Notes: generated by a model not told the origin, from the sequence alone. A DNA stretch of 64,000 nucleotides from an uncultured Gammaproteobacteria bacterium (GCA_964592195.1 CAZQEI010000007.1:5082-69081); one strand, 5' to 3'; positions 41,204 through 63,690 are shown, numbered from the stretch's first letter. Program-made: numbers and translations.

Positions 41204-41569
41204 ATGCCCAGTAAAATTTTAATCGCAGAAGATGAAAAACCAATGGCTCGGGCTTTGGTTTTGAAATTAACCAAAGAAGGCTTTGATGCTCAGAGTGCTG
41301 GAGATGGCGAAGAAGCTTTGCAAATCTTAGAAAAAGGTGGAATCGATCTTATGCTTTTGGATTTAGTTATGCCAAAGTTGGATGGCTTCGGAGTGTTGAA
41401 GGCAGTAAAAGAAAGAAAAATTAAAGTTAAAATAATTGTTAGTTCCAATCTTAGCCAGACTGAAGATTTTAACAAGGCAAAAGAATTGGGAGCGTTGGAT
41501 TTTATGGTGAAGTCAAATGTTTCACTCAGCGAAATCGTAGAAAAAGTAAAAAAATATCTAAACGAATAA
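41204..41569 (+). CDS. stand-alone response-regulator receiver (CheY-like)
   Basis: ILIAEDE...D54-equivalent in LLDLVMPKLDG...K. Confidence 0.8.
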   Translation: MPSKILIAEDEKPMARALVLKLTKEGFDAQSAGDGEEALQILEKGGIDLMLLDLVMPKLDGFGVLKAVKERKIKVKIIVSSNLSQTEDFNKAKELGALDFMVKSNVSLSEIVEKVKKYLNE

Positions 41570-41590
41570 AAAGCTTAACAAGCCAAACAT

Positions 41591-43384
41591 ATGGCTAATA
41601 GGAAGGGGACTACTGAGGTCAAGGCCAAAGTAGAAAAAAACAAATCAAATAAAGGTAATCTCGAAGGTCAAACCAAAGCCAAGGTTATAACGCAGGAAGT
41701 GAAACCCGAGGCAGCGGCCAAGAAGTTGACTGACGAAAGTTTGGGAAAGGTATTGCTCGAGCAGAGTTACATCTCGGCTGATGATTTGAAGGCAGCGGAA
41801 AATTATACAAAGTCCGGGCGCGGTAAGCTCACGGAGTTTTTATTATCCAATGGAATTTTGAATAAAGATTTATTGGGCCAAGCTGTAGCTGAGTATTACA
41901 AGGTTCCTTATGCTGATTTAAATACTAATACTCCAAAGCGCGATCAAGTTTTAAAAATTCCAGAATCCTTGGCCATGCAATATCGGGCAGTCTTATATCG
42001 TGAAGATGCGAAAACTGCAGTTATTACCACTGATGCTTTGGTGGAAATGCCACCACTATCAGGTTTTCAACCTTTATTCCCAGGGAAAAAGGTGGTTTTG
42101 GCATATTCAATTTCTGATGATATTGATTTTGTCCTCGGTTACTACAAAAAGTCTCTCGAAACGCAATTCTCAAAGATTATCGAAAACCAAGCTAGGATTG
42201 CGCCTGAGTTGTTGGAAGTTATTTTCAAGGACGCTTTGGCACAAAAAGCATCAGATATTCACTTTGAACCAAACGAAAAAGATGTCTTAGTCCGCTTCAG
42301 AGTTGATGGTCTTTTGTATGCCGCTGGTCATTTACCGGTCAAATTTTATCAAAACATTTTAAATCGCGTCAAAGTTTTGAGCAATATGCGCATTGATGAG
42401 CACTATGCAGCTCAGGATGGTGCTATTCGTTTCTTTGATGATAATCACGAGAAGGTAGATATGCGTGTGTCAGTCAGCCCTACTATCGAAGGTGAAAAGA
42501 TTGTTATTCGTTTGCTCAGTCATTATATCCAAAACTTTTCTTTGGCAGATTTAGGTTTGTCTGATGCTCATCGTGAAATGGTGGCCAAGGCTGCGGCGAA
42601 ACCTTTTGGTATGATTCTCGTTACCGGTCCGACTGGATCAGGCAAGACTACAACTTTGTATTCATTGTTGAAACTGTTAAATAGCTCGGATGTTAATATT
42701 ACTACTATTGAAGACCCGGTAGAATATCGATTGGCCGGTGTCAATCAGATTCAGGTAAATGCTGCTACAAATTTAACTTTTGCGAAAGGTTTGCGTTCTA
42801 TTGTGCGTCAAGATCCGGATATTATTTTGGTGGGCGAAGTTCGTGATACGGAAACTGCTGAAATTAGTGTGAATGCGGCTTTGACCGGACATTTATTATT
42901 ATCAACTTTCCATGCCAACGATGCAGCCTCAGCTATCCCTCGTTTGTTGGATATGGGTGTAGAACCATTCTTGATTTCTTCTACCTTGGAAATAATTGTG
43001 GCACAGCGTTTAGTTCGTCATATTTGTGATAATTGTAGAGTTAGTATGATTATGACGAAGAAGCAAGTGGAGGATAAATTTACCGGCGCCAGTAAGTATT
43101 TTACTGAAGAGCAAAATACGGTTTATGAAGGCAAGGGTTGTCATTTATGTAATAATACTGGCTATCGCGGACGTACTGCTATTTTTGAAGTTATTACCAT
43201 TACTCCAGAAATGGAAGAGTTAATTGTTAAAAGTCCATCGACCAAAGAAATTTGGGATTTGGCCAAAAAACAAGGTGCCAGCTCAGTCTTTGAAGATGGT
43301 ATTTTGAAAATTCGGGAGGGAATTACCACGATTGATGAATTGTTGCGTGTAGCTGAACCGCCAGTTGAACAAGTTGTTAGTTAA
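41591..43384 (+). CDS. pilB: type IV pilus / T2SS assembly ATPase (PilB/GspE family) with Lys-rich N-terminal extension
   Basis: T2SSE_N-like domain, Walker A GPTGSGKTT, Asp and His boxes, tetra-Cys CDNC...CHLC. Confidence 0.9.
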   Translation: MANRKGTTEVKAKVEKNKSNKGNLEGQTKAKVITQEVKPEAAAKKLTDESLGKVLLEQSYISADDLKAAENYTKSGRGKLTEFLLSNGILNKDLLGQAVAEYYKVPYADLNTNTPKRDQVLKIPESLAMQYRAVLYREDAKTAVITTDALVEMPPLSGFQPLFPGKKVVLAYSISDDIDFVLGYYKKSLETQFSKIIENQARIAPELLEVIFKDALAQKASDIHFEPNEKDVLVRFRVDGLLYAAGHLPVKFYQNILNRVKVLSNMRIDEHYAAQDGAIRFFDDNHEKVDMRVSVSPTIEGEKIVIRLLSHYIQNFSLADLGLSDAHREMVAKAAAKPFGMILVTGPTGSGKTTTLYSLLKLLNSSDVNITTIEDPVEYRLAGVNQIQVNAATNLTFAKGLRSIVRQDPDIILVGEVRDTETAEISVNAALTGHLLLSTFHANDAASAIPRLLDMGVEPFLISSTLEIIVAQRLVRHICDNCRVSMIMTKKQVEDKFTGASKYFTEEQNTVYEGKGCHLCNNTGYRGRTAIFEVITITPEMEELIVKSPSTKEIWDLAKKQGASSVFEDGILKIREGITTIDELLRVAEPPVEQVVS

Positions 43385-43398
43385 AAAAAAGGGGGAAT

Positions 43399-44562
43399 AT
43401 GGGAAAACAAGAAAACAAAAAAACAATAAAACAAAAAAGCAAAGAGAATAATAATATAAATAGCAAAAAGTTTGATTTTGCTGAGTTTTGGCGTAAATAT
43501 TTTGTGCGCTATTTTGGTTGGAGCTGGAGAAAAGAGAAAGAATATTTAGTTGAGAACTTGGCTATGTTGTTAACTTCAGGTATGGATATTACTTTGGCCT
43601 TGAAGGCTATCCAATCTGAAATGAAAAGTGCTTTTTTAAAAAAGGTTTTACAAGAAGTCAACGATGATATTACCAATGGTTCCCCGATTTGGGAAGCGAT
43701 GCGCAAGAGTCAGCTTTTTCCAGAGTATGTGATTGCCTTGATTCGCGTTGGTGAAGAGTCTGGTCAGCTAAATGAAAAATTGAAAGTGGTATCAGAGCAA
43801 GAAAAAAGACAAAGAGTTTTAAAATCTCGAATCACTGCGGCTTTGAGTTATCCAGTGTTAATAATATTGTTAACCTTAGTCGTGGGTGTGGCGATCAGCA
43901 CCTTTGTTTTGCCCCGTTTTGTTATGTTGTTTGGTCAAATTGATAAAGAATTGCCGGTAGCCACTAAAGGTTTGATTTGGTTAAGTTCATTTCTAGTAAA
44001 TAATGGTGTTTGGGCTGTGCCAATGTTCTTTGTGTTACTCGCGTTAACGGTATTTTTTGTCTTCATGTTTCCCAAAACCAAATTTATGGGTCAGTGGTTG
44101 TTTTTTCATCTGCCGGTAACAAAAAATTTGGTGCAAGAAATTGAAATTGCGCGTTTTGGTTCCAACTTGGGAACTTTATTAAAAGCTGGTTTGCCAGTGG
44201 GAGATGCTTTGGAAGCCTTGATTCGCTCGGTGAGTTTTTATAATTATAAAAAATTCTATTCATTTATAAAATCGCACGTCATGGATGGTGATACTTTTTT
44301 GCAAGCATTCAATAGCTATCCTCGTAGCCATAAACTGTTACCATTGTCTATCCAGCAAATGATCGGTTCGAGTGAACAATCTTCTTTCTTAGCGGAAAGT
44401 TTGATGGGGCTGGCGGAGGTTTACGAAGTGAAAACTGATATTACTGCCAAAAATTTAACGACCCTTTTAGAGCCAGTTTTGTTGATCTTTATCGGATTAG
44501 CAGTCTTGGGTGTGGCACTGGCTATTATTTTGCCGATTTATGGCTTGATAAATAATTTGTAA
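43399..44562 (+). CDS. pilC: type IV pilus platform protein (PilC/GspF family)
   Basis: Two GspF repeats, 3 TM helices, conserved ALSYP / LLEPVLLIFIG motifs. Confidence 0.85.
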   Translation: MGKQENKKTIKQKSKENNNINSKKFDFAEFWRKYFVRYFGWSWRKEKEYLVENLAMLLTSGMDITLALKAIQSEMKSAFLKKVLQEVNDDITNGSPIWEAMRKSQLFPEYVIALIRVGEESGQLNEKLKVVSEQEKRQRVLKSRITAALSYPVLIILLTLVVGVAISTFVLPRFVMLFGQIDKELPVATKGLIWLSSFLVNNGVWAVPMFFVLLALTVFFVFMFPKTKFMGQWLFFHLPVTKNLVQEIEIARFGSNLGTLLKAGLPVGDALEALIRSVSFYNYKKFYSFIKSHVMDGDTFLQAFNSYPRSHKLLPLSIQQMIGSSEQSSFLAESLMGLAEVYEVKTDITAKNLTTLLEPVLLIFIGLAVLGVALAIILPIYGLINNL

Positions 44563-44567: not shown

Positions 44568-45002
44568 ATGAAAAGATCGGGCTTCAGTCTTTTAGAAATG
44601 TTAATCGTGATTACTCTATTGGGACTGCTAGCGGCATTGTCCTTTCCTTTTTATAATCCTCTAGTGGCTCGTCATAATATCGCTAGTGCACGCGATACAG
44701 TAGTCCGTAGTTTGCATCGTACCCAGCTGTTATCCATGGCAATGGCTAATGATACGACTTGGGGTATTCATTTTGAAGCGGGGAAGGTAGTGATTTTCAA
44801 AGGTGCAACCTATATCGGACGTGATGCTGCTTATGATCAGGTAAATACTCTTGCCAGTAATATAACTTTTTCAGGCTTAAATGATTTTATTTTTACTAAG
44901 TTTGACGGTTACCCCGCCAGCACCGGAACAATTACCATTACCGGAGGGAATAGCGAAACAAAAACCATTACCTTGAATGCGAAGGGGATGGTTAGCTATT
45001 AA
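44568..45002 (+). CDS. prepilin-type (class III signal) pilin/pseudopilin
   Basis: MKRSG|FSLLEMLIVITLLGLLAA, with G at -1 and E at +5. Confidence 0.8.
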   Translation: MKRSGFSLLEMLIVITLLGLLAALSFPFYNPLVARHNIASARDTVVRSLHRTQLLSMAMANDTTWGIHFEAGKVVIFKGATYIGRDAAYDQVNTLASNITFSGLNDFIFTKFDGYPASTGTITITGGNSETKTITLNAKGMVSY

Positions 45003-45066
45003 GATAATAAATCGCTACGAATGACATATTTGCTACGAAACTACGAATAATATTTCCAATACGTAG

Positions 45067-46845
45067 ATTTGTAGCCGATTCGTTATTAGTAGTAAATATC
45101 TGCTTACAGAGAATAAACAAAAAACAGGTTACAGTCTCGTCGAAGCGTTGCTTGCCATCGCTTTGTTTGCGTTAATTGCATCTGGATTAGCGGGTAGTTT
45201 GATTTATGGATATTTCTCAACCTCATTGGCTGGCACTAGAGAACGAGCGGCTTTCATTGGGGAAGAAGGTTTAGATGCTAGTCATAATATTCGGGATGCG
45301 GCTTATACAAACTTGGTAAATGGAACTACTGGGGTGTCCGTGGCTAGCAATGTTTGGACTTTTTCTGGAGCTTCGGATACTACCAATGGAATTACTCGCG
45401 CAATAACAATTGCGGACGCTGGTTCCAATCGTAAGCAATTAACTGAAGCGGTGACTTGGACGCAAATGACAGGTCGCGCCGGTAGTTTTAATTTGGTGAC
45501 ATATTTAACTAATTGGAGAAGAGTGGGTGTGGCTTTGTATAATGCATTATTAATATATGGTGATGGTACAACCAGTCCGAAATATAGAACCTATAATAAT
45601 ACTACTAACGTTTTTAGTACAGAAACAACCACTGTTACAAATGCGGTCTCTCCGACATTTATAATGAGAACCTCTCCAACAAAATCAGAAGCAATCGCTG
45701 CTTTTTATAATTCTTCCGGAGATATGTATGTCATGTGTTTTGATGGTACAACATGGACCGATGAGTGGAATGTAAGTGTTGGCGGTACTGGTGCTGGGAG
45801 AAGAGTCGATGTAGCTTATGAAACAGCGTCAGGCGATGTAATGGTCTTATATAGTACTAATACCGCGACAACAAACGAGTTAAACTATCGGACTAAGGCA
45901 GGAAGCGCAGGCTGCGGCACTGTGAATTGGTCGGCCGCTCAAAATCTTAACCCTGTTAGAACTGCGAATATCATTAATTATATCCGTTTGGCTTGGGATC
46001 GTCGCGCCGGACAAAATTTAATTGCTGCAACCTGGGTGGATATCAGTGATGACTTGTCGAGCGCCATTTGGACAGGATCAGCCTGGACGAATGAACCAGC
46101 GACAGTTTCAGATACCAATGTTGAAAGGGTGTCAGTTGGGCATGATCTAGAAAATATGGATATTGAATATGAGTCATTGTCTGGAGATGTCATGATGGTT
46201 TGGGGTACCACCGTTGGTAATAATGCGAATGGTGTCCGATATCGAACTTGTAATGGCGGCACATCATCTTGCACTTGGAGCGCTGTGACGACTCCCCCAA
46301 CATTTAATGATGACGCTACCAACCTTGATTTATCTGCGAATCCAAATACCGACCAAATGGTTTTTGCCTCTATTGGAGAGAATCAGCGCGATTTACAAAT
46401 AGGCTATTGGAGTGGGACTACTTGGACGAATACAGCAAACGTAGATACTTCATGCAATACTCCTTTTGCTGGTTCCAAGTTGGTTTCGACGGGATGGTTG
46501 ATAAATGGTGCCACGACAAGGTCGGTAGTCCTTTATGAAGATCAGAATTCGAACAGCCTTAATTGGTATGTTGGAAATGTTGGTGTTTTTACTGTTCAGG
46601 GGGACTTCGTTGTTTTTCCTGCTCCTGTCAATCCAAATGGTTATTATGATATTCAAATGAATCCGCTTAGCAAAGATCAGCTGATGTTTTGTTTCTCAGA
46701 TAATAATAATGATTTATTCTGTAAACGTTTAGCTATGTCAGCCGTGCCGGCTTTTACATGGACAAATTCCGATGGTGCTGTTTTAGAAACAACTTTACCT
46801 CAAAAGATAACTAGCCCATTTGCGTTTGCGTATTGGAGACAATGA
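45067..46845 (+). CDS. large pilin-like protein with prepilin N-terminus (start codon uncertain)
   Basis: KQKTG|YSLVEALLAIALFALIASG prepilin motif at 45118-45190. No ATG/GTG/TTG upstream in frame back to the stop at 45064. Thr/Ser/Asn-rich body. Confidence 0.55.
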   Translation: MCSRFVISSKYLLTENKQKTGYSLVEALLAIALFALIASGLAGSLIYGYFSTSLAGTRERAAFIGEEGLDASHNIRDAAYTNLVNGTTGVSVASNVWTFSGASDTTNGITRAITIADAGSNRKQLTEAVTWTQMTGRAGSFNLVTYLTNWRRVGVALYNALLIYGDGTTSPKYRTYNNTTNVFSTETTTVTNAVSPTFIMRTSPTKSEAIAAFYNSSGDMYVMCFDGTTWTDEWNVSVGGTGAGRRVDVAYETASGDVMVLYSTNTATTNELNYRTKAGSAGCGTVNWSAAQNLNPVRTANIINYIRLAWDRRAGQNLIAATWVDISDDLSSAIWTGSAWTNEPATVSDTNVERVSVGHDLENMDIEYESLSGDVMMVWGTTVGNNANGVRYRTCNGGTSSCTWSAVTTPPTFNDDATNLDLSANPNTDQMVFASIGENQRDLQIGYWSGTTWTNTANVDTSCNTPFAGSKLVSTGWLINGATTRSVVLYEDQNSNSLNWYVGNVGVFTVQGDFVVFPAPVNPNGYYDIQMNPLSKDQLMFCFSDNNNDLFCKRLAMSAVPAFTWTNSDGAVLETTLPQKITSPFAFAYWRQ

Positions 46846-46970
46846 TTTCATTGAACATCGATCAAGGATCATTGATCATTGAACGTGAAGCAGCAAAGAA
46901 TAATTTAAAATTTTTCTAATCGTTGCACGTTTAACGCTTAACGAATTACGCTTTACGAATATCGAAAAAA

Positions 46971-47504
46971 ATGGCAAATATTATCACAACCAAATTTCAA
47001 ACAAACAAACGAGGTTTTACTCTCGTGGAATTTGTGATTTATGTTGGCATTGTGGCTCTGATGATAACCAGTTTAAGTTCATTTTTAATCATGGCAGTAT
47101 CGGCAAGAACTAAAGCAGAAGCAGTGGCGAATGTGGAAGAGCAGGGTATTGCGGCCATGCAAAGAATTACACAAACGATAAGAAACGCAACTAGTATTAC
47201 CGCTCCTAGTATTGGCACCAGTAGTGCAACTGGAGCGACCGTGGTTGTCCCAACCGGTGCGTTAAGTCCGACTTTGTTTAATTTATCATCAGGTGTTCTT
47301 CAAATGAAAGAAGGGGCTGGCGCGTATGTTGATTTAACTTCCAGTCAAGTAGTCGTTTCAGGTTTAACTTTTTATAATGTATCGAGACCGAGTACTTCTG
47401 GATCAATGAAAATACAATTTACAGTTTCAACACCAGCTACAAGTGTCGCTCCGCATTTTACCTATTCAAAAACTTTTAATGGAACCGCTACTTTAAGACC
47501 ATAA
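46971..47504 (+). CDS. minor pilin (prepilin-type N-terminus)
   Basis: KRG|FTLVEFVIYVGIVALMITS. Confidence 0.7.
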   Translation: MANIITTKFQTNKRGFTLVEFVIYVGIVALMITSLSSFLIMAVSARTKAEAVANVEEQGIAAMQRITQTIRNATSITAPSIGTSSATGATVVVPTGALSPTLFNLSSGVLQMKEGAGAYVDLTSSQVVVSGLTFYNVSRPSTSGSMKIQFTVSTPATSVAPHFTYSKTFNGTATLRP

Positions 47505-47508: not shown

Positions 47509-47910
47509 ATGAAGAAATTGATTCACAACAAAACCGGATTTGCCTTGATTGTTATGGTTTTGGTTATGGGAGCGGTGGCTCTGACTGTGGTGACAGTAGT
47601 TTTTGCCTTGGGAATTGGCTCCACTATGACTAGTACCGAGTTCGTGGCTTCTCATCAAGCCAAGGCTTTGGCAAACGCTTGTGCTGAGGAAGCTTTGGAG
47701 CAAGTCCGAGCGAGTACGGCCTACACTGGTACTGGAAGTCTAAGTTTGAGTACTGGCAGTTGTTCCTATACGGTTAGCAATACTGGTGGAGAAACGCGAT
47801 CTATTACTACTAACGCTACGGTTAGAAATATGACTCGTCGGGTGGCGATCACGGTGACTGCGATTAATCCATATATTACTATTTCTTCATGGCAGGAAGT
47901 GGCGAATTAG
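47509..47910 (+). CDS. minor pilin, PilX-like
   Basis: KTG|FALIVMVLVMGAVALTVV. No Glu at +5. Confidence 0.6.
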   Translation: MKKLIHNKTGFALIVMVLVMGAVALTVVTVVFALGIGSTMTSTEFVASHQAKALANACAEEALEQVRASTAYTGTGSLSLSTGSCSYTVSNTGGETRSITTNATVRNMTRRVAITVTAINPYITISSWQEVAN

Positions 47911-48149: not shown

Positions 48150-50978
48150 ATGAAACTATTTAGCAGTTTGAAAAACAAAATATCCTTCCTGATATCAGGC
48201 TTAATTTTAATTACCGGTTTGGCGGTGGTATTTTTAGTCTTCTTTTTGACCTCTAGTTTTTTCATTCAAGAAAAAAAGGCTGATTTTGTTGCTACTATTT
48301 CAGAGCAAGTGCATGAATCGTCTCGGGTTTTTGCCGAGGCACAGCGGACTGTTCAAGCGTTGAGTGCTCATGAGATGATAGTGAAATATTTTTCTGAAAA
48401 TATCCCAGCTTATCAGGATGCGGCAGTTTTGAACGAGCTAAATAGCATGAATATTGGTCTACAATATAGCGCAATATATTTGTTGAATTTGGATGGCCTG
48501 GCTTTGGTTTCCACTGATCCTCGTTTTGTCAATCAGGATTATGCTTTTCGAGAATATTTTCAAGTGGCTAAAGCTGGGAAACTGGGAGTTATGATGGCAG
48601 TAGGCGTGACCAGTAATGATCCAGGCTATTATTTTTCCGCTCCAGTTTTTAACCAAGATAAACAAGTGATTGGAATCGCAGTAATGAAATTAGATCCAAA
48701 AATTTTAAAGATTACTTTGGAACAAAGTGTTTTGTCGCGTTCGGGAAAATTAATGCTAGTAGATAAATCAGGCGTTATCTTATATTCAAATACTGAGGGT
48801 CGATTATTCAAAAGCTTGGGGGCCTTGTCTGCTCGAGAAATGGAAGTCATTATTACTGAACAAAGATTCTATAATATTGAAATATTACCTCTCCAATATG
48901 AATTAGTTCAAGAAAGGTTACGAAAACCAGTTAATAGTGTAGAATCATTTGAATTTTATGATTCAGAAGACGCTGAAAATGAGTTAATAGTTATCGCGCC
49001 TATTGAAAATGCTCCATTTTTCATAGTTTTGGAAGTAGATATGGATCAAGTCAATATGATTGCTTTTCAGATAGCTGGCTTGTTGGGGGTTTTTGTGCTA
49101 TTTTTGATAATCATTTCCGTAATAGCCAGTATTTTTGGTGTGGCTAGATTATTAAAACCTTTAATCTACTTGAAGAAGAACATTGAAGCTATTGGGCGGG
49201 GTGAAACTGTCAGTGTCAATCAAATTAAAACTAAAGATGAATTACAAACTATTGGTGAATCAGTAGTCTCAGCCTCAAAATTATTGCAGTCCAGTTATAA
49301 AGAGTTGGAAGATCGTGTAGCGGAAAGAACTGAAGCCTTGCAGGCATCTTTGAAGAAAGTTGATGTGACAAAGTCGGCTATTTTAAACGTATTGGATGAT
49401 GTGAATAAGGAACGGGATCGCACGAAACAGTTGGCTGATGATTTAGTTAAATTTAAACAAGCGGTGGAAAATGCCTCTGATCATATTGTGATTACCGACG
49501 CGAACGGTATCATACTGCATGCCAATCAAGCAGTAGAGAAAATTACCGGTTTCAAGATAAAAGATGTCTTGGGTAAAAAAGCTGGTAGTAAAGAGCTCTG
49601 GGGTGGTTATATGGATGAGGAATTTTATAAAAAGTTTTGGGATACTATAAAAAACAAGAAAAAAGTGTTTGTTGGAGAAATTACCAATAAACGTAAAAAT
49701 GGTGAAAAGTATCAAGCTGAAGCAGCGGTGTCTCCCATTTTAGATGATAATGGCGAGGTGAAGTTTTTCCTGGGTATTGAACGAGATATTAGTGAACGTA
49801 AAGATGCGGAAGAGCAGGTACGAAAGGTTTTGAATGATTTACAAGAGAAGAGTTATGTCTTAGCTCAGGAGAAGTCCAAAGACGAAGCTTTGTTAGCCGG
49901 TATCGGAGACGGTATCATCTCTACTGATCAAGATGGTGTCGTGAATATTATCAATCGTTCGGCTGTAGATATGCTTGGTTACTCAGAAAAAGATGTGATG
50001 GGTAAGTCCTTTATTGATACAGTAAAAATTGTTGATAGCAAGGATAATGAAATATCAATGACCGAACATCCATTGGTCTTGGCGTTATCAAACGTAGAAA
50101 AAACCACCACCCCGATTGGAAAGACTAATTATTTCAAGCGTCATGACGGTACTAAATTCGCCGCTGGTATCACCGCTTCTCCGTTTGTGTTGAATGGTAG
50201 AATTGTGGGCGTCATCTTAGTCTTCCGTGATGTTAGTCGTGAAAAAGAGGTTGATATGGCGAAGACTGAGTTTGTGTCTTTGGCCTCACATCAATTGCGC
50301 ACGCCGTTGTCCACTATCAATTGGTACGCAGAAATGCTTTTAGCTGGAGATGCTGGAAAAATTACTGGCGAACAAAAAGAGTATGTAAGTGAAATTTACA
50401 AGGGCAATCAGCGTATGGTGGAATTGGTGAATGCTTTGTTGAATGTCTCGAGAATCGAATTAGGCACTTTCTCGGTAGAGCCGGAAGATACAGATTTGAA
50501 AGAATTGGCGGAAAGCGTATTTGATGAATTGAAGCCTCAGTTATTAACCAAGAAAATGAAGGTGACTAAGAAGTACGATGAAAAATTAAAGCATTTATTT
50601 GTGGACAAGAAACTGATTCGTATCGTTTTCCAAAATTTGTTGACCAATGCTTTGAAATATACCCCAGAAAAGGGCAAAATTGATTTGAATATTCAAAAAC
50701 GCAAGAGTGATATCTTGGTAAGTGTGACTGATACTGGTGCTGGTATTCCCAAGAAGGATCAACAAAACATATTCCAAAAATTGTTCCGTTCTGACAATGT
50801 TAAAGCTCTCGATACCAATGGAACTGGGTTAGGTTTGTATATAGTTAGATCTATTGTTGAGCAATCTGCCAAGGGTAAAATTTGGTTTGAGTCTGAAGAG
50901 GGGAAAGGGACTACCTTCTATGTTTCTCTGCCTTTGACCGGTATGAAGGCCAAAGAGGGGACTAGAGCACTCACCTAA
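48150..50978 (+). CDS. sensor histidine kinase: TM, dCache-like extracytoplasmic domain, TM, coiled-coil/HAMP, two PAS domains, HisKA, HATPase_c
   Basis: H-box SHQLRTPLSTI, N-box, G-box GTGLGLYIVRSIV. PAS segments at about residues 430-660. Confidence 0.85.
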   Translation: MKLFSSLKNKISFLISGLILITGLAVVFLVFFLTSSFFIQEKKADFVATISEQVHESSRVFAEAQRTVQALSAHEMIVKYFSENIPAYQDAAVLNELNSMNIGLQYSAIYLLNLDGLALVSTDPRFVNQDYAFREYFQVAKAGKLGVMMAVGVTSNDPGYYFSAPVFNQDKQVIGIAVMKLDPKILKITLEQSVLSRSGKLMLVDKSGVILYSNTEGRLFKSLGALSAREMEVIITEQRFYNIEILPLQYELVQERLRKPVNSVESFEFYDSEDAENELIVIAPIENAPFFIVLEVDMDQVNMIAFQIAGLLGVFVLFLIIISVIASIFGVARLLKPLIYLKKNIEAIGRGETVSVNQIKTKDELQTIGESVVSASKLLQSSYKELEDRVAERTEALQASLKKVDVTKSAILNVLDDVNKERDRTKQLADDLVKFKQAVENASDHIVITDANGIILHANQAVEKITGFKIKDVLGKKAGSKELWGGYMDEEFYKKFWDTIKNKKKVFVGEITNKRKNGEKYQAEAAVSPILDDNGEVKFFLGIERDISERKDAEEQVRKVLNDLQEKSYVLAQEKSKDEALLAGIGDGIISTDQDGVVNIINRSAVDMLGYSEKDVMGKSFIDTVKIVDSKDNEISMTEHPLVLALSNVEKTTTPIGKTNYFKRHDGTKFAAGITASPFVLNGRIVGVILVFRDVSREKEVDMAKTEFVSLASHQLRTPLSTINWYAEMLLAGDAGKITGEQKEYVSEIYKGNQRMVELVNALLNVSRIELGTFSVEPEDTDLKELAESVFDELKPQLLTKKMKVTKKYDEKLKHLFVDKKLIRIVFQNLLTNALKYTPEKGKIDLNIQKRKSDILVSVTDTGAGIPKKDQQNIFQKLFRSDNVKALDTNGTGLGLYIVRSIVEQSAKGKIWFESEEGKGTTFYVSLPLTGMKAKEGTRALT

Positions 50979-51505: not shown

Positions 51506-51874
51506 ATGAAGAAAACAATTTTATTAGTCGAGGACGAAGAATCTTTGCGACACGCATTGAAAATTAAGTTAGTGAATGCTGGGTATGAAGTGATAGAGGC
51601 AGAGAACGGTAAGGTGGGGTTGGATATGGCTTTGAGACATCAGCCAGATTTAATTCTCCTCGATATTGTTATGCCGGTAATGGATGGGGTGACTATGTTG
51701 GAAAAATTGCGTGCCGATGATAAGGGTGCCAATTTAGATGTTATAATGTTAACTAACTTAAATGATACCGGTAAAGTGGAATCAGCTGAGAAATCGGATG
51801 TTTCAGATTATTTGATTAAAACTGATTGGACTTTGCAAGATTTATTAAAGTTAATTGAGAAAAAAATTGGTTAA
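51506..51874 (+). CDS. stand-alone response-regulator receiver (CheY-like)
   Basis: ILLVEDEESLRHAL...LLDIVMPVMDG...K. Confidence 0.85.
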   Translation: MKKTILLVEDEESLRHALKIKLVNAGYEVIEAENGKVGLDMALRHQPDLILLDIVMPVMDGVTMLEKLRADDKGANLDVIMLTNLNDTGKVESAEKSDVSDYLIKTDWTLQDLLKLIEKKIG

Positions 51875-51885: not shown

Positions 51886-51916
51886 AAAAATAGCTCGTTT
51901 TCACGAGCTATTTTTG
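51886..51916. terminator. bidirectional rho-independent terminator
   Basis: TAGCTCGttttcACGAGCTA flanked by A-run and T-run, between convergent genes. Confidence 0.7.
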
Positions 51917-51923: not shown

Positions 51924-52397
51924 TTATCTAGTAACTTCGATTTCATCAGCTTGTTCTGGGTTGCAGGCTCCAACAGTTAAGGCACCTGAAACATCTCTTT
52001 TAATATAGTAATCAGTAACAGTTGAGTCACCTGATGATGGATCGACTGGGACTTTGGGTAGATATTTTGCGTCAATCAAATCTTCTATGTCCGCACAACT
52101 GGGAGAAGTAGTGTGAGCCGTACATCCGATATCACCACCCACTGAGCAAGTGCCAATCATATAGTATGTGTCAACTAGTAAACTACCTATTGAGGTTGGG
52201 AAGTTACCATTGTTGTCAACTTGCCGATATTTAGCGGCATCGAGGACTGCTGTGACATCTGACCAGCGATTCGCATCGCGGGCTTGTTCAAACCGAGTGA
52301 GTGGGTCGAGCATGACGAAAATAATTATCGCCAAGATAGCGATGATCCCAATCACAATTAAAAGTTCAATTAAAGTGAACCCTTTTTTGTTTTTCAT
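51924..52397 (-). CDS. type IV pilin (prepilin class III), 157 aa, copy 1
   Basis: MKNKKG|FTLIELLIVIGIIAILA. Four Cys in the C-terminal half. Confidence 0.8.
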   Translation of the reverse strand: MKNKKGFTLIELLIVIGIIAILAIIIFVMLDPLTRFEQARDANRWSDVTAVLDAAKYRQVDNNGNFPTSIGSLLVDTYYMIGTCSVGGDIGCTAHTTSPSCADIEDLIDAKYLPKVPVDPSSGDSTVTDYYIKRDVSGALTVGACNPEQADEIEVTR

Positions 52398-52573: not shown

Positions 52574-53047
52574 TTAACGACTAACAGTGATGGCCGCGCC
52601 ACCTTCAGGATCGCACGCACCGACGGTTAAAACACCGGTGGAGGCTCTCATGATGTAGTAATCGGTTTCAACAGCAGTGCCGGTCGAGGGATCTAGTGGT
52701 ACTGCGGATAAATGGCCGGAGGTAACTAGACCGGTCAAATTCGCACATGCGGCTTGGGTGGTTTGAGCAGTACAACCAGAATCACCACCGGTGGCACAAG
52801 TGCCGATAGTGTAATAATTACCGGCAGTTAATCCGCTTATGGTGGCAATATATGAACCGCCATTGTCAACTTGGTTGAGTTTAGCGGCATCTAGTACTGC
52901 TCCGATATCAGCCCAACGCGTTGCGTCTCGAGCATCTTGGAAGCGGGATAACGGATCGAGCGCTACGAATACGATAACTGCCAAAATAGCAATAATCGCA
53001 ATTACGATGAGCAATTCGATCAAGGTAAAACCTTTTTGTTTTCTCAT
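52574..53047 (-). CDS. type IV pilin, 157 aa, copy 2
   Basis: MRKQKG|FTLIELLIVIAIIAILA. Near-identical to copy 3. Confidence 0.8.
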   Translation of the reverse strand: MRKQKGFTLIELLIVIAIIAILAVIVFVALDPLSRFQDARDATRWADIGAVLDAAKLNQVDNGGSYIATISGLTAGNYYTIGTCATGGDSGCTAQTTQAACANLTGLVTSGHLSAVPLDPSTGTAVETDYYIMRASTGVLTVGACDPEGGAAITVSR

Positions 53048-53172: not shown

Positions 53173-53646
53173 TTAACGGCTAACAGTAATGGCTGCGCCA
53201 CCTTCAGGATCGCACGCACCGACGGTTAAAACGCCTGTAGATGCTCTCATGACATAATAATCGGTTTTAGAGGCTGTACCGGTGGAAGGATCCAATGGCA
53301 CGGCTGACAAATGTCCAGAAGTGACCAAACCGGTCAAGTCTGCGCAAGCGGCAACAGTAGTTTGAGCTGTACAGCCTGTATTTCCACCAGTTACACAAGT
53401 GCCAACGGTGTAATAAGTACCGGCAGTTAATCCGCTTATAGCGGCAATGTAGGAACCACCATTATCAACTTGGTTGAGTTTAGCGGCATCTAATACTGCT
53501 CCGATATCAGCCCAACGCGTTGCGTCTCGAGCATCTTGGAAACGAGATAAGGGATCGAGTGCCACGAACACGATGACCGCCAAGATAGCGATGATCGCAA
53601 TCACGATGAGCAACTCAATCAATGTAAAGCCTTTTTGTTTTCTCAT
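53173..53646 (-). CDS. type IV pilin, 157 aa, copy 3
   Basis: Identical N-terminal 80 aa to copy 2. Substitutions cluster in the C-terminal half (AAISGLTAGTYYTVGTCVTGGNTG vs ATISGLTAGNYYTIGTCATGGDSG). Confidence 0.8.
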   Translation of the reverse strand: MRKQKGFTLIELLIVIAIIAILAVIVFVALDPLSRFQDARDATRWADIGAVLDAAKLNQVDNGGSYIAAISGLTAGTYYTVGTCVTGGNTGCTAQTTVAACADLTGLVTSGHLSAVPLDPSTGTASKTDYYVMRASTGVLTVGACDPEGGAAITVSR

Positions 53647-53864: not shown

Positions 53865-54614
53865 TTACGCATTTTTTCCAACTTCCCAAAAATAATCAAA
53901 TACACTTTCCCAACTCTTAATAATTTCTGGATGAGAAATGGCCGTTATAAATGGTGGATGACCGGAGAAGAATACTATTTTATCTGGTAATACCCAGAAA
54001 GATGAAGTGAACTCAACCCCCTTAGGCAAGAATCTAACTTCAATCGGTTGGCGTTTTATTTTGTTCGGATTGATTTCACGTTCAGTGTCAACGCTGATTA
54101 AAGTTCGAGTTTGCAAGTTATTTTTTGTTTTTTGATCCAGTAAAATAAACTCGGTGTCATCAGAAAGTATTTTTGTGTAATCGCCACGGTGGGGTGAATC
54201 AAAAGTTTTAATGACTGTTCCGCGGGGGAGTGATGATATGGTGTTTTTTATGAAATTTTTAATACTTTCTTTTGTGTCATAAACTTGGGCGGTGGGAAAA
54301 GCATTTTCGTGTCGGTAAAGATCTCTTAACTGATCCTTCAAGCTTGTTGCCAGTTGGGCTTGGCTAAGAAAATGTCCCTCAAGTGCTTGCGGACTTTCCA
54401 CCCAATAATATTTTGCACCGCGGTGAGTATTACAAGACACAAAACCGCGTTCAGTTAACAAATTTAAAATGCTGATCACAGTGGTTCGCGGTAAGTTAAC
54501 TTTTTTGGCTACGCGAGAAGCTACAGCTTCGCCGAGTAAAGTTAAGCCGAGATAGACTTTAATTTCGTTGGTTTTGAAACCAAGTTCTTTGAGCGTGGAT
54601 TGGATTTGATTCAT
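53865..54614 (-). CDS. TrmB-family-like HTH transcriptional regulator
   Basis: N-terminus LKELGFKTNEIKVYLGLTLLGEAVASRVAKKVNLPRTTVISILNLLTERGFV resembles a TrmB wHTH. C-terminal domain is unassigned. Confidence 0.5.
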   Translation of the reverse strand: MNQIQSTLKELGFKTNEIKVYLGLTLLGEAVASRVAKKVNLPRTTVISILNLLTERGFVSCNTHRGAKYYWVESPQALEGHFLSQAQLATSLKDQLRDLYRHENAFPTAQVYDTKESIKNFIKNTISSLPRGTVIKTFDSPHRGDYTKILSDDTEFILLDQKTKNNLQTRTLISVDTEREINPNKIKRQPIEVRFLPKGVEFTSSFWVLPDKIVFFSGHPPFITAISHPEIIKSWESVFDYFWEVGKNA

Positions 54615-57541: not shown

Positions 57542-57665
57542 ACGATAATTTAATTGATAATGGCGGTGCTATGCATCGGATACATGGCGTGCCATCCGTA
57601 GCGCAGGCTTTATCTTGCCCTTCTTCGCATAAAGCTACGAAGGGCATCCTTCGCTGCGCGAAGGA

Positions 57666-57984: not shown

Positions 57985-58127
57985 ATGATTTATTGTAACG
58001 TAGCGAAGGTGCTGGGCAAACTGCTTGTCCCGCAGAAACGAAGTGTATGCGGGAAGCTACAGGCCAATGATGTTTGTTAATGGTCGGGCTGATCCCGCTG
58101 AGCGGGACGGCCTCATTTATCTCATGT

Positions 58128-58204
58128 TGGTCGGGCTGACTGGACTTGAACCAGCGGCCTCATGCACCCCATGCATGCGCTCTAGCCAACTGAGCTACAA
58201 CCCG
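58128..58204 (-). tRNA. tRNA-Pro (anticodon GGG)
   Basis: C1-G72 acceptor CGGGTTG/CAGCCCG, anticodon stem CATGC/GCATG, loop ATGGGGT, T arm GCTGG-TTCAAGT-CCAGT, ACCA. Confidence 0.8.
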
Positions 58205-58516
58205 ACGATTGTTATTTGTAGCGAAGGAATGTCCAACCCCGAAGGGGCCCCTTCGGGGCTGCGGAGTCCTCCGAAGCTTTAGCGAAGGAGGAAGCTACAA
58301 CCCGCCGATTCATTAAGTTAATACTAAATTAACAGTATCCAGATTATAAAACAAATAATGATTTTTTTCAAGTGCAGTTAATGTTGTATGTAATATGACA
58401 AGTAAGGTTAGTGACACAGATGTTTTTGATATTTATTGATTTTTTGGGGATGAATAATTTGGTTTGTTATCGACAAAAATGGTATAATAATAACAACTAA
58501 AGATTAATGATTTAAT

Positions 58517-60202: not shown

Positions 60203-60203
60203 T

Positions 60204-61478
60204 ATGGTCAAAAAAACAATAAAACAAGAAAACCCGCCAGAGGCGGATCAGCCTCCGGCTGACAAGAAAGCAATAAAGCAAGAAAATAAAGAATTGAAAA
60301 AGCGTAAAGAATCAAAAATAACTTTTGAAGAACCGCCAGTGGATCTCGATAAGGTTGAAGAAAAGGTTGTTAAAAAAATCAAGGTGGAGAAGCCTTCGGT
60401 TGAGGATGTGGTTAAAAAAGCCAAACAACCGATTTATCTTGGTGGTGTGTCGCGCAAGACGATTTTGTATTTTACTAAGAACTTGTCAATTTTATTGAGA
60501 ACTGGGTCCACGGTTTCAGAATCATTGGAAGTACTCAATGTGGAAGTCAAAGATCAGTTTCATAAGATTTTACAGCAAATTATTGATGATGTGCAACGAG
60601 GGGTGTCTCTTAGTGACGCTCTGGCTGAGCATCCCAAAGTGTTTGCTGAGTTGTATGTAAATATTGTAAAAATTGGCGAGGAATCTGGTAATCTTGAAAA
60701 GAACTTGGAATATCTTGCGCAACAATTGAACAGCTCATATCAACTGAGAAAGAAAATCGTGGGTGCCATGATTTATCCAATTATTATTCTTTCTGGTATT
60801 TTTTTCCTAGGGACAGGTTTGGCTATTTATATCTTGCCCAAGATTAGTCAACTGTTTCGCAGTTTCAAGATCAAACTACCGTGGACAACTAATATGTTAA
60901 TTAGTTTGTCTGATTTTATGCAAAAGCATGGTTTTGCGACATTGATGATTATTATCGCGACCTTTATTGCAGTGGTAGTCATTAGAAGAATAAAAGTGAT
61001 TAAACCATTTTTACATTCCATAGTCCTGAAAACACCGGTAGTCGGGCGTATTTCAAGACATTTCAACTTGTCCATGTTTTATCGTAGTCTTTCCATCTTA
61101 TTGAAAAGTGGAGTGACGATTGATGAGGCATTGAAGGTGGTAAGCAAGACAACTACCAACATGGTTTATCGCAATTTTATTTTAGCCACTTGTACCAGTA
61201 TTAAATCAGGTGAAAGCTTGTATGATATTTTGCATCGTAATAGCAAGCTGATTCCCCCGACAGATTCACAGATCATCAATGTGGGGGAGGCCTCTGGCAC
61301 CATGTCAGATTCATTGTCATATATCGCGGAAATACACGAGGAAGAGTTAAATGATATCACTCGCAACTTATCCAGTATCATTGAACCGGTATTATTCATT
61401 TTCTTGGGTGTGGTGGTGGCGATTTTGGCTATGTCAATTATTACTCCAATTTATTCTATTACCGGTCAATTTAAATAA
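60204..61478 (+). CDS. pilC: second PilC/GspF-family platform protein with about 70-aa Lys/Glu-rich N-terminal extension
   Basis: Two GspF repeats, 3 TM helices. Start overlaps the pilB2 stop (TAATATG). Confidence 0.85.
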   Translation: MVKKTIKQENPPEADQPPADKKAIKQENKELKKRKESKITFEEPPVDLDKVEEKVVKKIKVEKPSVEDVVKKAKQPIYLGGVSRKTILYFTKNLSILLRTGSTVSESLEVLNVEVKDQFHKILQQIIDDVQRGVSLSDALAEHPKVFAELYVNIVKIGEESGNLEKNLEYLAQQLNSSYQLRKKIVGAMIYPIIILSGIFFLGTGLAIYILPKISQLFRSFKIKLPWTTNMLISLSDFMQKHGFATLMIIIATFIAVVVIRRIKVIKPFLHSIVLKTPVVGRISRHFNLSMFYRSLSILLKSGVTIDEALKVVSKTTTNMVYRNFILATCTSIKSGESLYDILHRNSKLIPPTDSQIINVGEASGTMSDSLSYIAEIHEEELNDITRNLSSIIEPVLFIFLGVVVAILAMSIITPIYSITGQFK

Positions 61479-61480
61479 TT

Positions 61481-61909
61481 ATGCATAAAGGTTTTACATT
61501 GTTAGAGATGATGGTGGCGCTGGGAATTATTATCCTCTTGGCCGCTGTGACTGTGCCTTTTTATAACCAAATTTCTTTCTCGCGCACGACTGAATCAGCC
61601 AGAGGAGAATTAACGTCTGTATTACGTTTAGCGGCCAGCCAAGCCTCGGCCAGCCAGAATGATAGCGCTTTTGGTGTCTATATTTTATCCAATCATTATA
61701 TTTTATTCCGAGGCAATAGTTATGCCAGCCGGATAGCAGTAGAAGATCGTAGTTTTGATTTACCTGCGGGAATTACTTTGTCTGGTTTGAATGAAGTGGT
61801 TTTTGCCAAACAAACTGGATTACCCAATGTTACGGGAACGATTAGTTTAATTAATCAATTGGGACAAACCATGACGGTTTCTATAAATTCACAAGGCTTG
61901 ATATATTAA
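61481..61909 (+). CDS. prepilin-type pilin/pseudopilin
   Basis: MHKG|FTLLEMMVALGIIILLA. Confidence 0.8.
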   Translation: MHKGFTLLEMMVALGIIILLAAVTVPFYNQISFSRTTESARGELTSVLRLAASQASASQNDSAFGVYILSNHYILFRGNSYASRIAVEDRSFDLPAGITLSGLNEVVFAKQTGLPNVTGTISLINQLGQTMTVSINSQGLIY

Positions 61910-61910
61910 C

Positions 61911-62795
61911 ATGAAAAAAAATAGTGGTTATAATTTGTTGGAAGTAGTGTTGGCCCTAGGTCTTTTTTTTGTATTAATGACAGGTGTTGCTTTGTTGGCT
62001 TCACGCTATGTCGGGGCTTTGACTCGTGCCGTCGAATTGCAGGATGTGTCACTTATCGCCAGTGAAACGCAGGAAGCTTTGGACAAATTAGCCTCGTCGA
62101 GTTGGGCCAGTTTGACCGATGGTCCACATGGTTTGACTACGTTGGGGAGTGATTGGCAATTGTCAGGTAGTTCTGATTTGATTAATAGTAAATACACACG
62201 GCAGATAACTGTGGCTTCGGTAAATCGCGACAGTAGTTGCAATTTAGTTACCTCGGGCGGTACGGCTGATCCAGATACGAAAACAGTTGTGACCCAGCTT
62301 AGTTGGACAGAGAGAGGTCAGAATTTATCGAAATCTTTTTATTCATATGTAACAAATTGGAGAAGCCCAAGTTCCTCATGTCTGATCGTTGGCCAAGCTG
62401 GTGGTTTGGGATTGAATACTGGTACGGCGACTCGTAATGAATATTTTGATTGGATTAATTTTTTGGTCACAATAGACAATGTTCGGATTACCAATAATTA
62501 TTCTGGGAGCGTGACGATTGACAAAGTTCAAGTATATTTTGATAAACCGGGAATGAAGATTACCAATTTTAAAATCAATGGATCAACTCGCTGGGGATGG
62601 TTAGGTCCTGGCTCTCCGGGAGGCATGCAATCATCGGATGCCATTTTGGATATTTCAAACTATACTTTTACTCAAGGTCAAACTGTTACCGTGAAAATGC
62701 AATTTACCACCAGTTCCTCTGGTCCGATAAATTTTCATATTAAATTCATTATGACTGATTTGAGTGAAGTGGAAACTAATGGTTTTACATTATAA
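61911..62795 (+). CDS. large pilin-like protein (prepilin N-terminus)
   Basis: KKNSG|YNLLEVVLALGLFFVLM. Confidence 0.65.
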   Translation: MKKNSGYNLLEVVLALGLFFVLMTGVALLASRYVGALTRAVELQDVSLIASETQEALDKLASSSWASLTDGPHGLTTLGSDWQLSGSSDLINSKYTRQITVASVNRDSSCNLVTSGGTADPDTKTVVTQLSWTERGQNLSKSFYSYVTNWRSPSSSCLIVGQAGGLGLNTGTATRNEYFDWINFLVTIDNVRITNNYSGSVTIDKVQVYFDKPGMKITNFKINGSTRWGWLGPGSPGGMQSSDAILDISNYTFTQGQTVTVKMQFTTSSSGPINFHIKFIMTDLSEVETNGFTL

Positions 62796-63335
62796 TTGAT
62801 TAAATTTGTGAAAAAAATAGGCATTACATTGATAGAATTGCTAATATACATAGGATTGTCTGCGATAATACTATCTGCGTTGGTTTATGTGACCTTTAAT
62901 TTGCTTGGTGACAATGTTCGTGCTGATGTTATGGCTCGATTAAACGATGAAACCAGCTTGGTAAAAGAACGAATAACTTATTATGTCAATCGAGCTGATA
63001 GTCTGGATGCAGGAAGTATTTATGCTATTAATCCGAGTACTTTGATTGTTAATGATGGAGGGATCTTAAATCGATTTGAAATATATACAAAAACAGTGAC
63101 TATTAATGGCAATGCTATTGATATAAAAAAATTGCGATTTAAATCAGGCAGTGGCGACTACGTTGATCTAACCAGTGACACGGTCACGGTTGACCGATTT
63201 ATTGTGACGGATATGTCAAACAGTTCCATCGGTAGTGTTCGCGTGGATTGGCAAGTGCGCTCTCGCAATGCCGCCGGAGGAAAATATTATAATTCACTTT
63301 ATGCCAATACCTTCTCAGCCACCATCAAAAAGTAA
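62796..63335 (+). CDS. minor pilin
   Basis: KKIG|ITLIELLIYIGLSAIILSA. Confidence 0.65.
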   Translation: MIKFVKKIGITLIELLIYIGLSAIILSALVYVTFNLLGDNVRADVMARLNDETSLVKERITYYVNRADSLDAGSIYAINPSTLIVNDGGILNRFEIYTKTVTINGNAIDIKKLRFKSGSGDYVDLTSDTVTVDRFIVTDMSNSSIGSVRVDWQVRSRNAAGGKYYNSLYANTFSATIKK

Positions 63336-63690
63336 AGGTTTTGTTATGATCGCTTTGGTAATTTTACTGGGTGCGATTATGGCTGTGGTCAGCGTGAGGA
63401 CCGCACTTTTCAGTTTGACCGAGTTAGATGTTTCAACAAAACGACTCGCTACCGAGCAAATTAAACAACAAGCCCAAGGTTGTTTGTCTGAAGCAATTTT
63501 ACATCTACGCAAAAATAGTAGTTTTACCACATCCACGGTAAACATTGGCGGTGGTTCCTGTACCACAACTGTTACCGGCGGCGGTAATGACAGAGTGATA
63601 ACTGTCGTGGCGGTTCAAGGTGTTTACAATTACACATTACATGCGACCGTTACTATTTCTCCCTTTGTGGTGAGTGAGTGGGGAAATTAG
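63301..63690 (+). CDS. minor pilin, PilX-like (start uncertain: ATG 63301 or 63346)
   Basis: SKSKG|FVMIALVILLGAIMAVVSV. Overlaps the upstream gene if 63301 is used. Confidence 0.5.
   Translation: MPIPSQPPSKSKGFVMIALVILLGAIMAVVSVRTALFSLTELDVSTKRLATEQIKQQAQGCLSEAILHLRKNSSFTTSTVNIGGGSCTTTVTGGGNDRVITVVAVQGVYNYTLHATVTISPFVVSEWGN

Follow-up and report, generated by a model that had tools for sequence, protein, structure and literature searches.

Do two type IV pilus gene sets that stand in one stretch of DNA, both of them without a secretin, build two filaments with different tasks? The question is raised by a stretch of 64,000 nucleotides (nt) from an uncultured bacterium (GCA_964592195.1, CAZQEI010000007.1:5082-69081), referred to here as the window and numbered from its first position. 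Within it, the extension ATPase PilB, the platform protein PilC and a row of prepilin-like genes are encoded twice, as locus A and locus B (Table 1). We consider it probable that the loci represent two paralogous type IVa-like pilus modules, each composed of PilB, PilC and a core quartet of minor pilins, and that three tandem pilin genes lying between them provide the bulk subunit. An earlier note on this DNA had described two "complete" gene sets in the same order. All the open reading frames (ORFs) that it had placed in the two loci are present, and the shared order of PilB, PilC and prepilin-like genes was confirmed by the ORF map and Pfam. Neither set can be called complete, since PilD, PilM/N/O and PilT are not in the window and no obvious major pilin lies in either locus.

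Type IV pili of this kind are known from the Candidate Phyla Radiation (CPR, Patescibacteria), whose genomes encode PilB, PilT, PilC, PilM/N/O and pilins and no PilQ (Meheust et al. 2019, PMC6744442); a complete Microgenomates genome has the same set, again without PilQ. Nanosynbacter lyticus TM7x, of the Saccharibacteria, encodes PilB and PilC twice and assembles filaments of two widths (Grossman et al. 2024, PMC11623550). The thick filament, T4P-1, is essential and serves twitching, and the thin filament, T4P-2, needs PilA2 and PilB2 and serves host binding (PMC11623550). The window host is likewise a CPR bacterium, near Falkowbacteria and Magasanikbacteria. Its isoleucyl-tRNA synthetase (IleRS) is 69%, 68% and 57% identical to proteins of Falkowbacteria, Magasanikbacteria and Komeilibacteria, respectively, and the nearest pilus relatives are Parcubacteria/Patescibacteria metagenome-assembled genomes (MAGs), so that the episymbiotic type of lineage suggested in the earlier note is borne out. 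The genetic code is the standard one. The best genomic relatives of PilB-B, at 59% identity, are the MAGs L001 and L015, one labelled as a member of the Parcubacteria group and the other as Gammaproteobacteria (L015, CAZMEQ010000004.1). Together with L015, the MAGs L002 and L042, all from binchicken co-assemblies, are labelled "uncultured Gammaproteobacteria" despite their Patescibacteria-type pilus loci. These labels look wrong, in the case of L015 because its type IV pilus gene content matches that of the Parcubacteria MAG and of the window.

Two diverged modules and the class of their motors

The order of PilB, PilC and four prepilin-like genes is identical in the two loci. In an all-against-all BLASTP comparison of the window proteins, PilB-A and PilB-B share 41% identity, PilC-A and PilC-B share 28%, and the four pilin pairs, in order, share 34%, 27%, 26% and 33%. 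With paralogue identities of 26-41%, a recent segmental duplication is ruled out, in agreement with the clear divergence that had been reported before, and the duplication must therefore be old.

A regular-expression scan of all six frames found eleven prepilin-type genes, all within 44568-63690. In each quartet, the glutamate at position +5 (Glu+5) is missing only from the final pilin, where V or A stands instead; Glu+5 is also missing from minor pilins of the GspK/PilX type. The first pilin of locus A matches GspH in Pfam (E-value (E) 0.003) and both ComGD and GspH in NCBIfam, and the first pilin of locus B matches ComGD (38.8 bits) and GspH (30.1 bits) in NCBIfam, all of these matches being sub-threshold. 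Because of these weak matches at the head of the quartet and the lack of Glu+5 at its end, the four pilins of each locus look like a core minor-pilin (tip/priming) quartet in the order H-I-J-K, and not like a major pilin with accessories. The order and the Glu+5 pattern fit such a quartet, and predicted folds cover the second pilin only. The "short prepilin" that opens each pilin block, which had been set apart from the minor pilins as a class, is probably a GspH/FimU-like minor pilin itself. Four consecutive prepilin-like genes, the last without Glu+5, are likewise seen in FimU-PilVWX of the Pseudomonas type IVa pilus and in GspH-I-J-K of type II secretion, a likeness in which the sequence matches here are sub-threshold. 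Unlike the FimU-PilVWX systems, the window has no PilY1 or PilE, and its adhesin-like module forms part of the second pilin rather than being a separate PilY1. The fourth pilin of locus A is 58% identical to its orthologue in the Falkowbacteria locus L081. For the fourth pilin of locus B, ATG 63301 is the probable start, the mechanical ORF beginning at GTG 63235.

As for the motors, both ATPases have a Walker A motif (GPTGSGKTT in PilB-A) and the tetracysteine motif CxxC...CxxC. NCBIfam equivalog models were applied with their stated bit cut-offs, and the PilB model was the best for both proteins, in PilB-B over the full length. PilB-A and PilB-B score 499 and 552 bits against PilB (cut-off 676), 467 and 526 against GspE (cut-off 630), and 256 and 249 against ComGA (cut-off 300). 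A sequence search of the PDB gave Thermus PilF as the best match of PilB-A and Geobacter PilB as that of PilB-B; in both cases PilF and the Geobacter/Myxococcus PilB proteins came first, GspE next, and PilT far behind. Since the PilB scores lie under the cut-off, the ATPases are best placed as members of the PilB/PilF/GspE class and not as PilB equivalogs. The NCBIfam scores and the PDB matches rule out PilT as the identity of either one. Among the platform proteins, PilC-A and PilC-B reach 131 and 159 bits with ComGB (cut-off 240) and 200 and 277 bits with GspF (cut-off 424). Neither locus can be classed as a type II secretion system, the GspE and GspF scores being below cut-off and GspD/C/L/M domains being absent from the window in Pfam scans of its larger ORFs. 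The T2SSE_N domain that had been reported for both ATPases is retained for PilB-B, where MshEN/T2SSE_N scores 30.5 bits (Pfam cut-off 23.1), and not for PilB-A (16.5 bits). About 45 Lys/Glu-rich residues extend the N-terminus of PilB-A (residues 1-50, 41591-41740), an extension absent from PilB-B, and residues 51-101 of PilB-A give a sub-threshold match to the MshE-type motif for binding cyclic di-GMP (26 bits, cut-off 38). Sorting related PilB proteins into A-type and B-type by best BLAST match proved unreliable, as the PilB proteins of distant propeller-carrying operons come out closer to PilB-B, probably owing to the greater divergence of PilB-A.

As an example of two tasks, the earlier note had named DNA uptake (competence) by a pseudopilus from one locus and adhesion or motility by a pilus from the other. 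This division of labour appears improbable. The layout of ATPase, platform and four pilins does resemble comGA-GB-(GC)-GD-GE-GF-GG, the first pilin of each locus weakly matches ComGD/ComGE, and a dependence on DNA uptake is assumed for CPR bacteria, with a part in it proposed for pili (PMC6744442). However, ComGA, ComGB and ComGC/ComGD scores are all below cut-off, ComGC reaching at most 25 bits among the pilins scanned (cut-off 75). The ATPases, at 560-600 amino acids (aa) with N-terminal domains and the tetracysteine motif, are PilB-like, and no ComEA, ComEC or DprA was found in Pfam scans of the larger window ORFs. In TM7x, the T4P-2 mutants have normal competence (PMC11623550). Additionally, both loci carry a bulky bimodular pilin of adhesin type, of which the propeller in A is acidic, and for this reason a competence role fits neither of them. 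On sequence grounds, both loci are instead PilB-class type IV filament modules, and nothing marks either one as a competence system.

Among the features by which a type IVa-like system is recognized, the window holds a PilB/GspE-class ATPase, a PilC/GspF platform and prepilins with class III signal peptides. Pfam scans of about 45 larger window ORFs gave no match to a secretin, PilT, peptidase A24 (PilD), PilM/N/O or ComEA/ComEC, as the earlier note had also stated; PilQ, the diderm feature, is thus not in the window either. No short T2SSE ATPase was seen beside about 50 related operons.

Table 1. Features of the two pilus loci and of the genes around them (window positions; in motifs, a slash marks the processing site).
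Feature	Position	Strand	Basis
RR1 (response regulator 1), single-domain CheY-like receiver	41204..41569	+	Pfam Response_reg E 5e-23; 22 nt upstream of pilB-A
PilB-A, extension-type ATPase, 597 aa	41591..43384	+	Pfam T2SSE E 8e-124
PilC-A, platform protein	43399..44562	+	Pfam T2SSF, two repeats, E 4e-45
A minor pilin 1 (GspH/FimU/ComGD-like), motif SG/FSLLE	44568..45002	+	N_methyl E 8e-7
A minor pilin 2, bimodular, C-terminal beta-propeller	45100..46845	+	Predicted structure; 565-aa ORF from TTG 45148, no Pfam match
A minor pilin 3 (GspJ/PilW position), motif RG/FTLVE	46971..47504	+	N_methyl E 7e-5
A minor pilin 4 (GspK/PilX-like), 133 aa, motif TG/FALIV, no Glu+5	47509..47910	+	Motif scan
Membrane histidine kinase: dCache_1 between two hydrophobic segments, two PAS, HisKA, HATPase_c	48150..50978	+	Pfam
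CheD-like protein, 127 aa	51024..51407	+	Pfam CheD E 2e-25; between kinase and RR2
RR2, second single-domain receiver	51506..51874	+	Pfam Response_reg E 1e-21
Hairpin, 13 bp, terminator-like, between convergent RR2 and pilin genes	51886..51915		Terminator scan
Major-pilin candidate 1, 157 aa, KG/FTLIELLIV, 4 Cys	51924..52397	-	N_methyl E 2e-9
Major-pilin candidate 2, 157 aa, 4 Cys	52574..53047	-	N_methyl E 2e-11
Major-pilin candidate 3, 157 aa, 4 Cys	53173..53646	-	N_methyl; 93% aa, 84% nt identity to copy 2
TrmB-family winged-helix regulator	53865..54614	-	Pfam TrmB E 3e-13; same strand, directly upstream of pilin array
PilB-B, extension-type ATPase, 561 aa	58517..60202	+	Pfam T2SSE E 4e-131
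PilC-B, platform protein	60204..61478	+	Pfam T2SSF, two repeats, E 1e-51
B minor pilin 1 (GspH/ComGD-like), motif KG/FTLLE	61481..61909	+	N_methyl (Pfam)
B minor pilin 2, bimodular, C-terminal beta-sandwich, 294 aa, motif SG/YNLLE	61911..62795	+	AlphaFold2
B minor pilin 3 (GspJ/PilW position), motif IG/ITLIE	62796..63335	+	N_methyl E 0.004, sub-threshold; motif scan
B minor pilin 4 (GspK/PilX-like), motif KG/FVMIA, no Glu+5	63301..63690	+	Motif scan

Large bimodular pilins

The second pilin of each quartet is predicted to be bimodular, with an N-terminal pilin module, made of a helix and a sheet of 4-5 strands, followed by an independent C-terminal module. The AlphaFold2 model of the locus A protein (mean predicted local distance difference test score, pLDDT, 87.8, from a 50-sequence alignment) has an N-terminal helix at 13-64, a pilin beta-sheet at 75-137 and an all-beta domain at 149-578. 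When this protein was compared with the PDB by Foldseek, the seven-bladed propeller lectins BP39L, PLL and PHL were the top matches (E about 4e-9, target template-modelling score 0.55-0.69), the modelled propeller thus resembling the PLL-type lectins. The domain covers about 430 residues (45535-46842; residues 146-581 when counted from CTG 45100), with an isoelectric point (pI) of 4.4 and 15 Trp. Such an acidic, Trp-rich propeller would fit sugar binding better than DNA binding, the latter being judged less likely because of the acidity. The model of the locus B protein (pLDDT 79.5) has a helix at 5-67, a pilin sheet at 71-148 and a beta-sandwich at 166-288; the sandwich gave no specific structural match in the PDB, and only 8 homologues of the protein were detected. 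The structure prediction that the earlier note had recommended, in search of adhesin tip domains, gave a PLL-like propeller for A and left the beta-sandwich of B without a specific counterpart. Neither C-terminal domain has a Pfam or InterPro signature.

The propeller pilin is broadly distributed, with at least 399 homologues at 50-67% identity across Patescibacteria, the best relative being a Falkowbacteria protein. Compared with the operon in the Falkowbacteria locus L081, it is the best conserved protein of the A set (67% over the full length), ahead of PilB (61%) and PilC (40%). The propeller domain alone defines a family with 656 representative clusters, of which 205 reach E<=1e-30. Pilins of about 600 aa carry it at their end and proteins of 1,000-4,500 aa close to their N-terminus, and giant proteins of up to 7,926 aa contain it too. 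When metagenomes were scanned with the propeller pilin as seed, 80 loci were obtained, 51 with a pilin-type operon; in 13 of the 80 the domain lies instead in ORFs of more than 1,500 aa, of which 10 exceed 3,000 aa. At about 50% identity, it was also seen inside giant ORFs of 3,200-5,000 aa (loci L140-L162).

Modular type IV pilins are widespread, and examples from CPR bacteria include Falkowbacteria and Magasanikbacteria (Raynaud et al. 2021, PMC8179133). PilB (vWA) and PilC (lectin) of Streptococcus sanguinis likewise join a small pilin module to a bulky C-terminal module predicted to be exposed at the tip (PMC8179133). Unlike the modules of S. sanguinis, those described here lack a Pfam or InterPro signature, and the propeller family also occurs in giant proteins. 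The closest parallel is TM7x, where the propeller pilin PilX2, with a PLL-type-lectin-like structure, mediates host binding and PilX1 has a jelly-roll/L-type-lectin-like module (PMC11623550). Both are CPR bacteria with two PilB/PilC sets, no secretin (here within the window) and many divergent pilins, among them one large pilin with a PLL-like propeller, putatively seven-bladed in the window, and another with a beta-sandwich/jelly-roll module. In contrast to TM7x, the window belongs to a relative of Falkowbacteria and Magasanikbacteria, its minor pilins stand directly behind PilB and PilC, and PilT, PilM/N/O and PilD are not adjacent. The parallel is architectural. Dual secretin-less type IV pili of CPR bacteria are already known, and the present architecture closely resembles that of TM7x, in another CPR class.

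The large prepilin-headed proteins of 294 and 565 aa that had been reported are both present as ORFs, with the qualification that the prepilin motif of the 565-aa ORF lies upstream of its TTG start. This motif, KTG/YSLVEALLA, is at 45124-45144. An in-frame TAG stands at 45064, no ATG, GTG or TTG is found between it and the processing site, and the full-length prepilin can be reached only from CTG 45100 or from ATT (45067, 45085). In homologues, an ordinary Met stands about 10 residues ahead of the Gly. From this start problem it could be argued that one module, more likely A, is decaying or silent and that a single pilus is made. The A operon of the window also lacks trailing pilin genes, unlike most A-type operons, and the related locus L163 keeps only a remnant of the A module. 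Every A gene is nevertheless an intact ORF in which catalytic and processing motifs are conserved, the propeller pilin shares 67% identity with its orthologue in Falkowbacteria along the full length, and a start at CTG 45100 would give a leader about as long as in the homologues. A silent A module is therefore regarded as very improbable.

Major-pilin candidates and gene order in relatives

Apart from the two quartets, the only prepilin-type genes in the window are the three tandem 157-aa genes between the loci, which the earlier note had left out, as it had the CheD-like gene. They have the strongest N_methyl scores (Pfam, E 1e-9 to 1e-11) and a common motif, KG/FTLIELLIV, and are the best candidates for the major pilin, neither locus having an obvious one of its own. 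Copies 2 and 3 each share 58% identity with copy 1. Directly behind the B-type locus of L001 and L015, on the same strand, stand one or two 155-aa pilins; copies 2 and 3 are 72-73% identical to the first of these, and copy 1 is 60% identical to the pilin after the B-type locus of L001. A single 155-aa pilin after the B-type locus of L163 is 52-55% identical to the three window pilins. Because pilins of 155 aa follow the B-type loci in L001, L015 and L163, the window genes are most plausibly orthologues of these trailing pilins. A terminator-like hairpin at 52565-52536 follows copy 2, a class not enriched over shuffled sequences region-wide.

The earlier note had taken the duplication to imply two distinct filaments. 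This is plausible, and the sole major-pilin candidates form one three-gene family. Each filament might have major pilins of its own, copy 1 serving one motor and copies 2 and 3 the other, or the major pilin of A might be encoded elsewhere. The three window pilins do fall into two sequence types, A-type operons elsewhere carry trailing pilins that are 33-38% identical to those of the window, and TM7x assembles two filaments of different width (PMC11623550). On the other hand, each of the three pilins of the window has higher identity to the B-adjacent pilins of L001 and L015 (54-73%) than to those next to A in L081 (33-38%), and only pilins on the B strand lie between the modules in L015 and L163. 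We regard separate major pilins as unlikely. Position alone cannot assign the window pilin genes to one motor.

The gene neighbourhoods of relatives clarify this arrangement. The A operon of L081 consists of a receiver, PilB, PilC, pilins of 147, 593, 174 and 142 aa, three further pilins, a kinase and a receiver, and every one of its proteins is orthologous to the A set of the window. About 50 metagenome contigs keep the A order as well. The B order is kept in L001, L015 and L163, where PilB and PilC come ahead of four pilins (about 144, 294, 176 and 116-146 aa). L015 has an A-type operon tail, with J-like and K-like genes, a 526-aa ORF, a kinase and a receiver, in convergent orientation to the B-type locus and the pilins; it has the complete set of B, pilins and A tail in common with the window, the two modules standing tail to tail around the pilins. 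L163 has a reduced A-type module consisting of a K-like gene, a short kinase and a receiver. Since L015 and L163 keep an A-type tail facing the B-type locus and pilins, module A, the signalling genes, the pilins and module B form one supercluster in this lineage, of which the window shows a rearranged form. The TrmB-family regulator upstream of the pilin array has no homologue in L001 or L015, and its membership in the pilus system is uncertain.

Signalling genes and neighbouring features

Within the window, only locus A stands among signalling genes, as had been noted before. In RR1, an acidic pair, the Asp that accepts the phosphate (in LMLLDLVMP) and the conserved Lys can be recognized, and in the translations of both RR1 and RR2 the acidic pocket, Asp, Ser/Thr and Lys residues are intact. 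RR2 is 52% identical to the receiver that follows the kinase in L081, and orthologues of the kinase adjoin A-type operons in L081 and L015. The link is conserved more widely, as judged from operon-type contigs of the metagenome scan with enough flanking sequence. In 25 of 31 related contigs, PilB is preceded by a receiver at a distance of no more than 66 nt, a kinase homologue is present in 16 of 20, and a major-pilin homologue lies within 1.5 kb downstream on the same strand in 27 of 30. No second PilB was seen in these operon-type contigs. Conserved gene context thus identifies locus A as a local copy of a widespread CPR operon with a dCache kinase and CheY-like receivers. No published description of a propeller-pilin operon linked to a kinase and receivers was found in the literature searched, the coverage of which was incomplete. 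Outside the window, CheD was seen in this context in a single contig, L157 (receiver-CheD-kinase-receiver-receiver-PilB), and the CheD of the window is an orphan, with no CheA, CheW or methyl-accepting chemotaxis protein (MCP) in the window.

Control of type IV pilus motors by CheY-like proteins is known from PilG/PilH of the Pseudomonas Chp system and from PixG/PixH-type receivers in cyanobacteria. As in such control (compare PMC10519157), single-domain receivers are here genetically tied to a PilB motor. Unlike in the Chp system, no CheA, CheW or MCP is present here; the kinase is a classical dCache-PAS HisKA protein, and the link is known from gene context. It also differs from the TM7x work, which mentions no response regulators, in that a kinase and two receivers flank locus A.

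If the two modules are read as proposed, each quartet would prime assembly on PilC and cap the filament, by analogy with the minor pilins of type IVa pili and type II secretion systems, so that the propeller of A or the beta-sandwich of B would be displayed at the pilus tip. PilB would power extension, and the bulk subunit would be drawn from the three tandem pilins. The products would be pili with two different tips and motors, which may draw on one pilin family in common or each on different paralogues within it. The filament would cross a monoderm-type envelope without a secretin and attach to a host cell or surface, with PilD, PilM/N/O and perhaps PilT supplied from elsewhere. The dCache kinase would sense an external signal and phosphorylate the single-domain receivers, one of which might modulate PilB-A or its partners.

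Going further, the A-type operon could encode a signal-gated pilus for host attachment, in which the extracellular dCache domain senses a cue from the host or the environment and RR1 acts directly on PilB-A in place of its degenerate MshEN-like N-terminus. The receiver would then switch the extension of a propeller-tipped pilus, and the propeller would be a module reused in giant CPR surface proteins. We offer this as a tentative and rather doubtful extension. If true, it would represent a chemosensory control circuit for episymbiont attachment, undescribed in the literature searched.

Several observations weigh against the two-module reading. The prepilin leader of the propeller pilin lacks a canonical start codon in this genome. 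The same pilin shows uncommonly strong conservation (50-67% identity, above that of PilC), a surprising trait in a host-specific adhesin. Gene order, motifs and sub-threshold model matches are the basis of the H/I/J/K assignments. PilD, PilM/N/O and PilT are absent from the window, which limits any judgement on whether the pili can be assembled. Lastly, the A-type module is only a remnant in L163, and A may therefore be dispensable.

Type IV pili are the main candidate organelles by which the ultra-small CPR bacteria find and hold their hosts, and direct evidence has so far come from Saccharibacteria only. The window represents a comparable design of two motors and two bimodular tips in a distant CPR lineage, with a PLL-like propeller as one putative tip, and the propeller-pilin operon is widespread, usually accompanied by a sensor kinase and CheY-like receivers. 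The propeller domain, RR1 and the dCache kinase are thus targets for the study of regulated host attachment. As secretin-less and dual CPR pili have already been published, the advance is incremental. The additions are modest: conserved sensory coupling, a conserved propeller without a database signature, and a supercluster in which pilins lie between two motors.

Several other features lie near the pilus genes. A fusion protein of HMA, DsbD_2 and cupredoxin domains adjoins the pilus loci in three genomes (window 39593-40897 on the minus strand, L001 4716-6191, L163 834-2288). The DsbD_2 homologue is upstream of A in the window, and in L001 and L163 it is upstream of B, together with a P-type ATPase. 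Each major-pilin candidate has four Cys and the propeller pilin seven, and a disulfide-handling link to the DsbD_2 protein is conceivable. Four clustered tRNA genes (Pro-CGG, Leu-CAG, Ala-CGC, Pro-GGG; 57465-58204, minus strand) stand directly upstream of pilB-B and fill a gap of 1.1 kb. An Rfam scan of the window gave five tRNAs and no regulatory RNA. Predicted promoters (55 sites versus 46±6 in shuffles) and terminators (16 versus 13±4) were not above the shuffled level.

Among the other larger ORFs of the window, Pfam recognized housekeeping genes only, such as those for PolA, IleRS, phosphoribosyl pyrophosphate synthetase, two dNK kinases, RlmN and an ABC-F protein. The minus-strand gene at the window end, after locus B, has a C-terminus that we take from the translation to be that of a nucleoside diphosphate kinase. 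Three tandem paralogous ORFs at 10633-14678 (414, 430 and 403 aa; mutual identity 32-36%) have no Pfam match and have in common the N-terminal motif ETINLTGTV.PE..GS.VDVNE. The two deoxynucleoside kinase genes form a tandem pair at 19945-21270 (203 and 204 aa; dNK E about 1e-54 each), which fits the nucleotide-salvage lifestyle of CPR bacteria.

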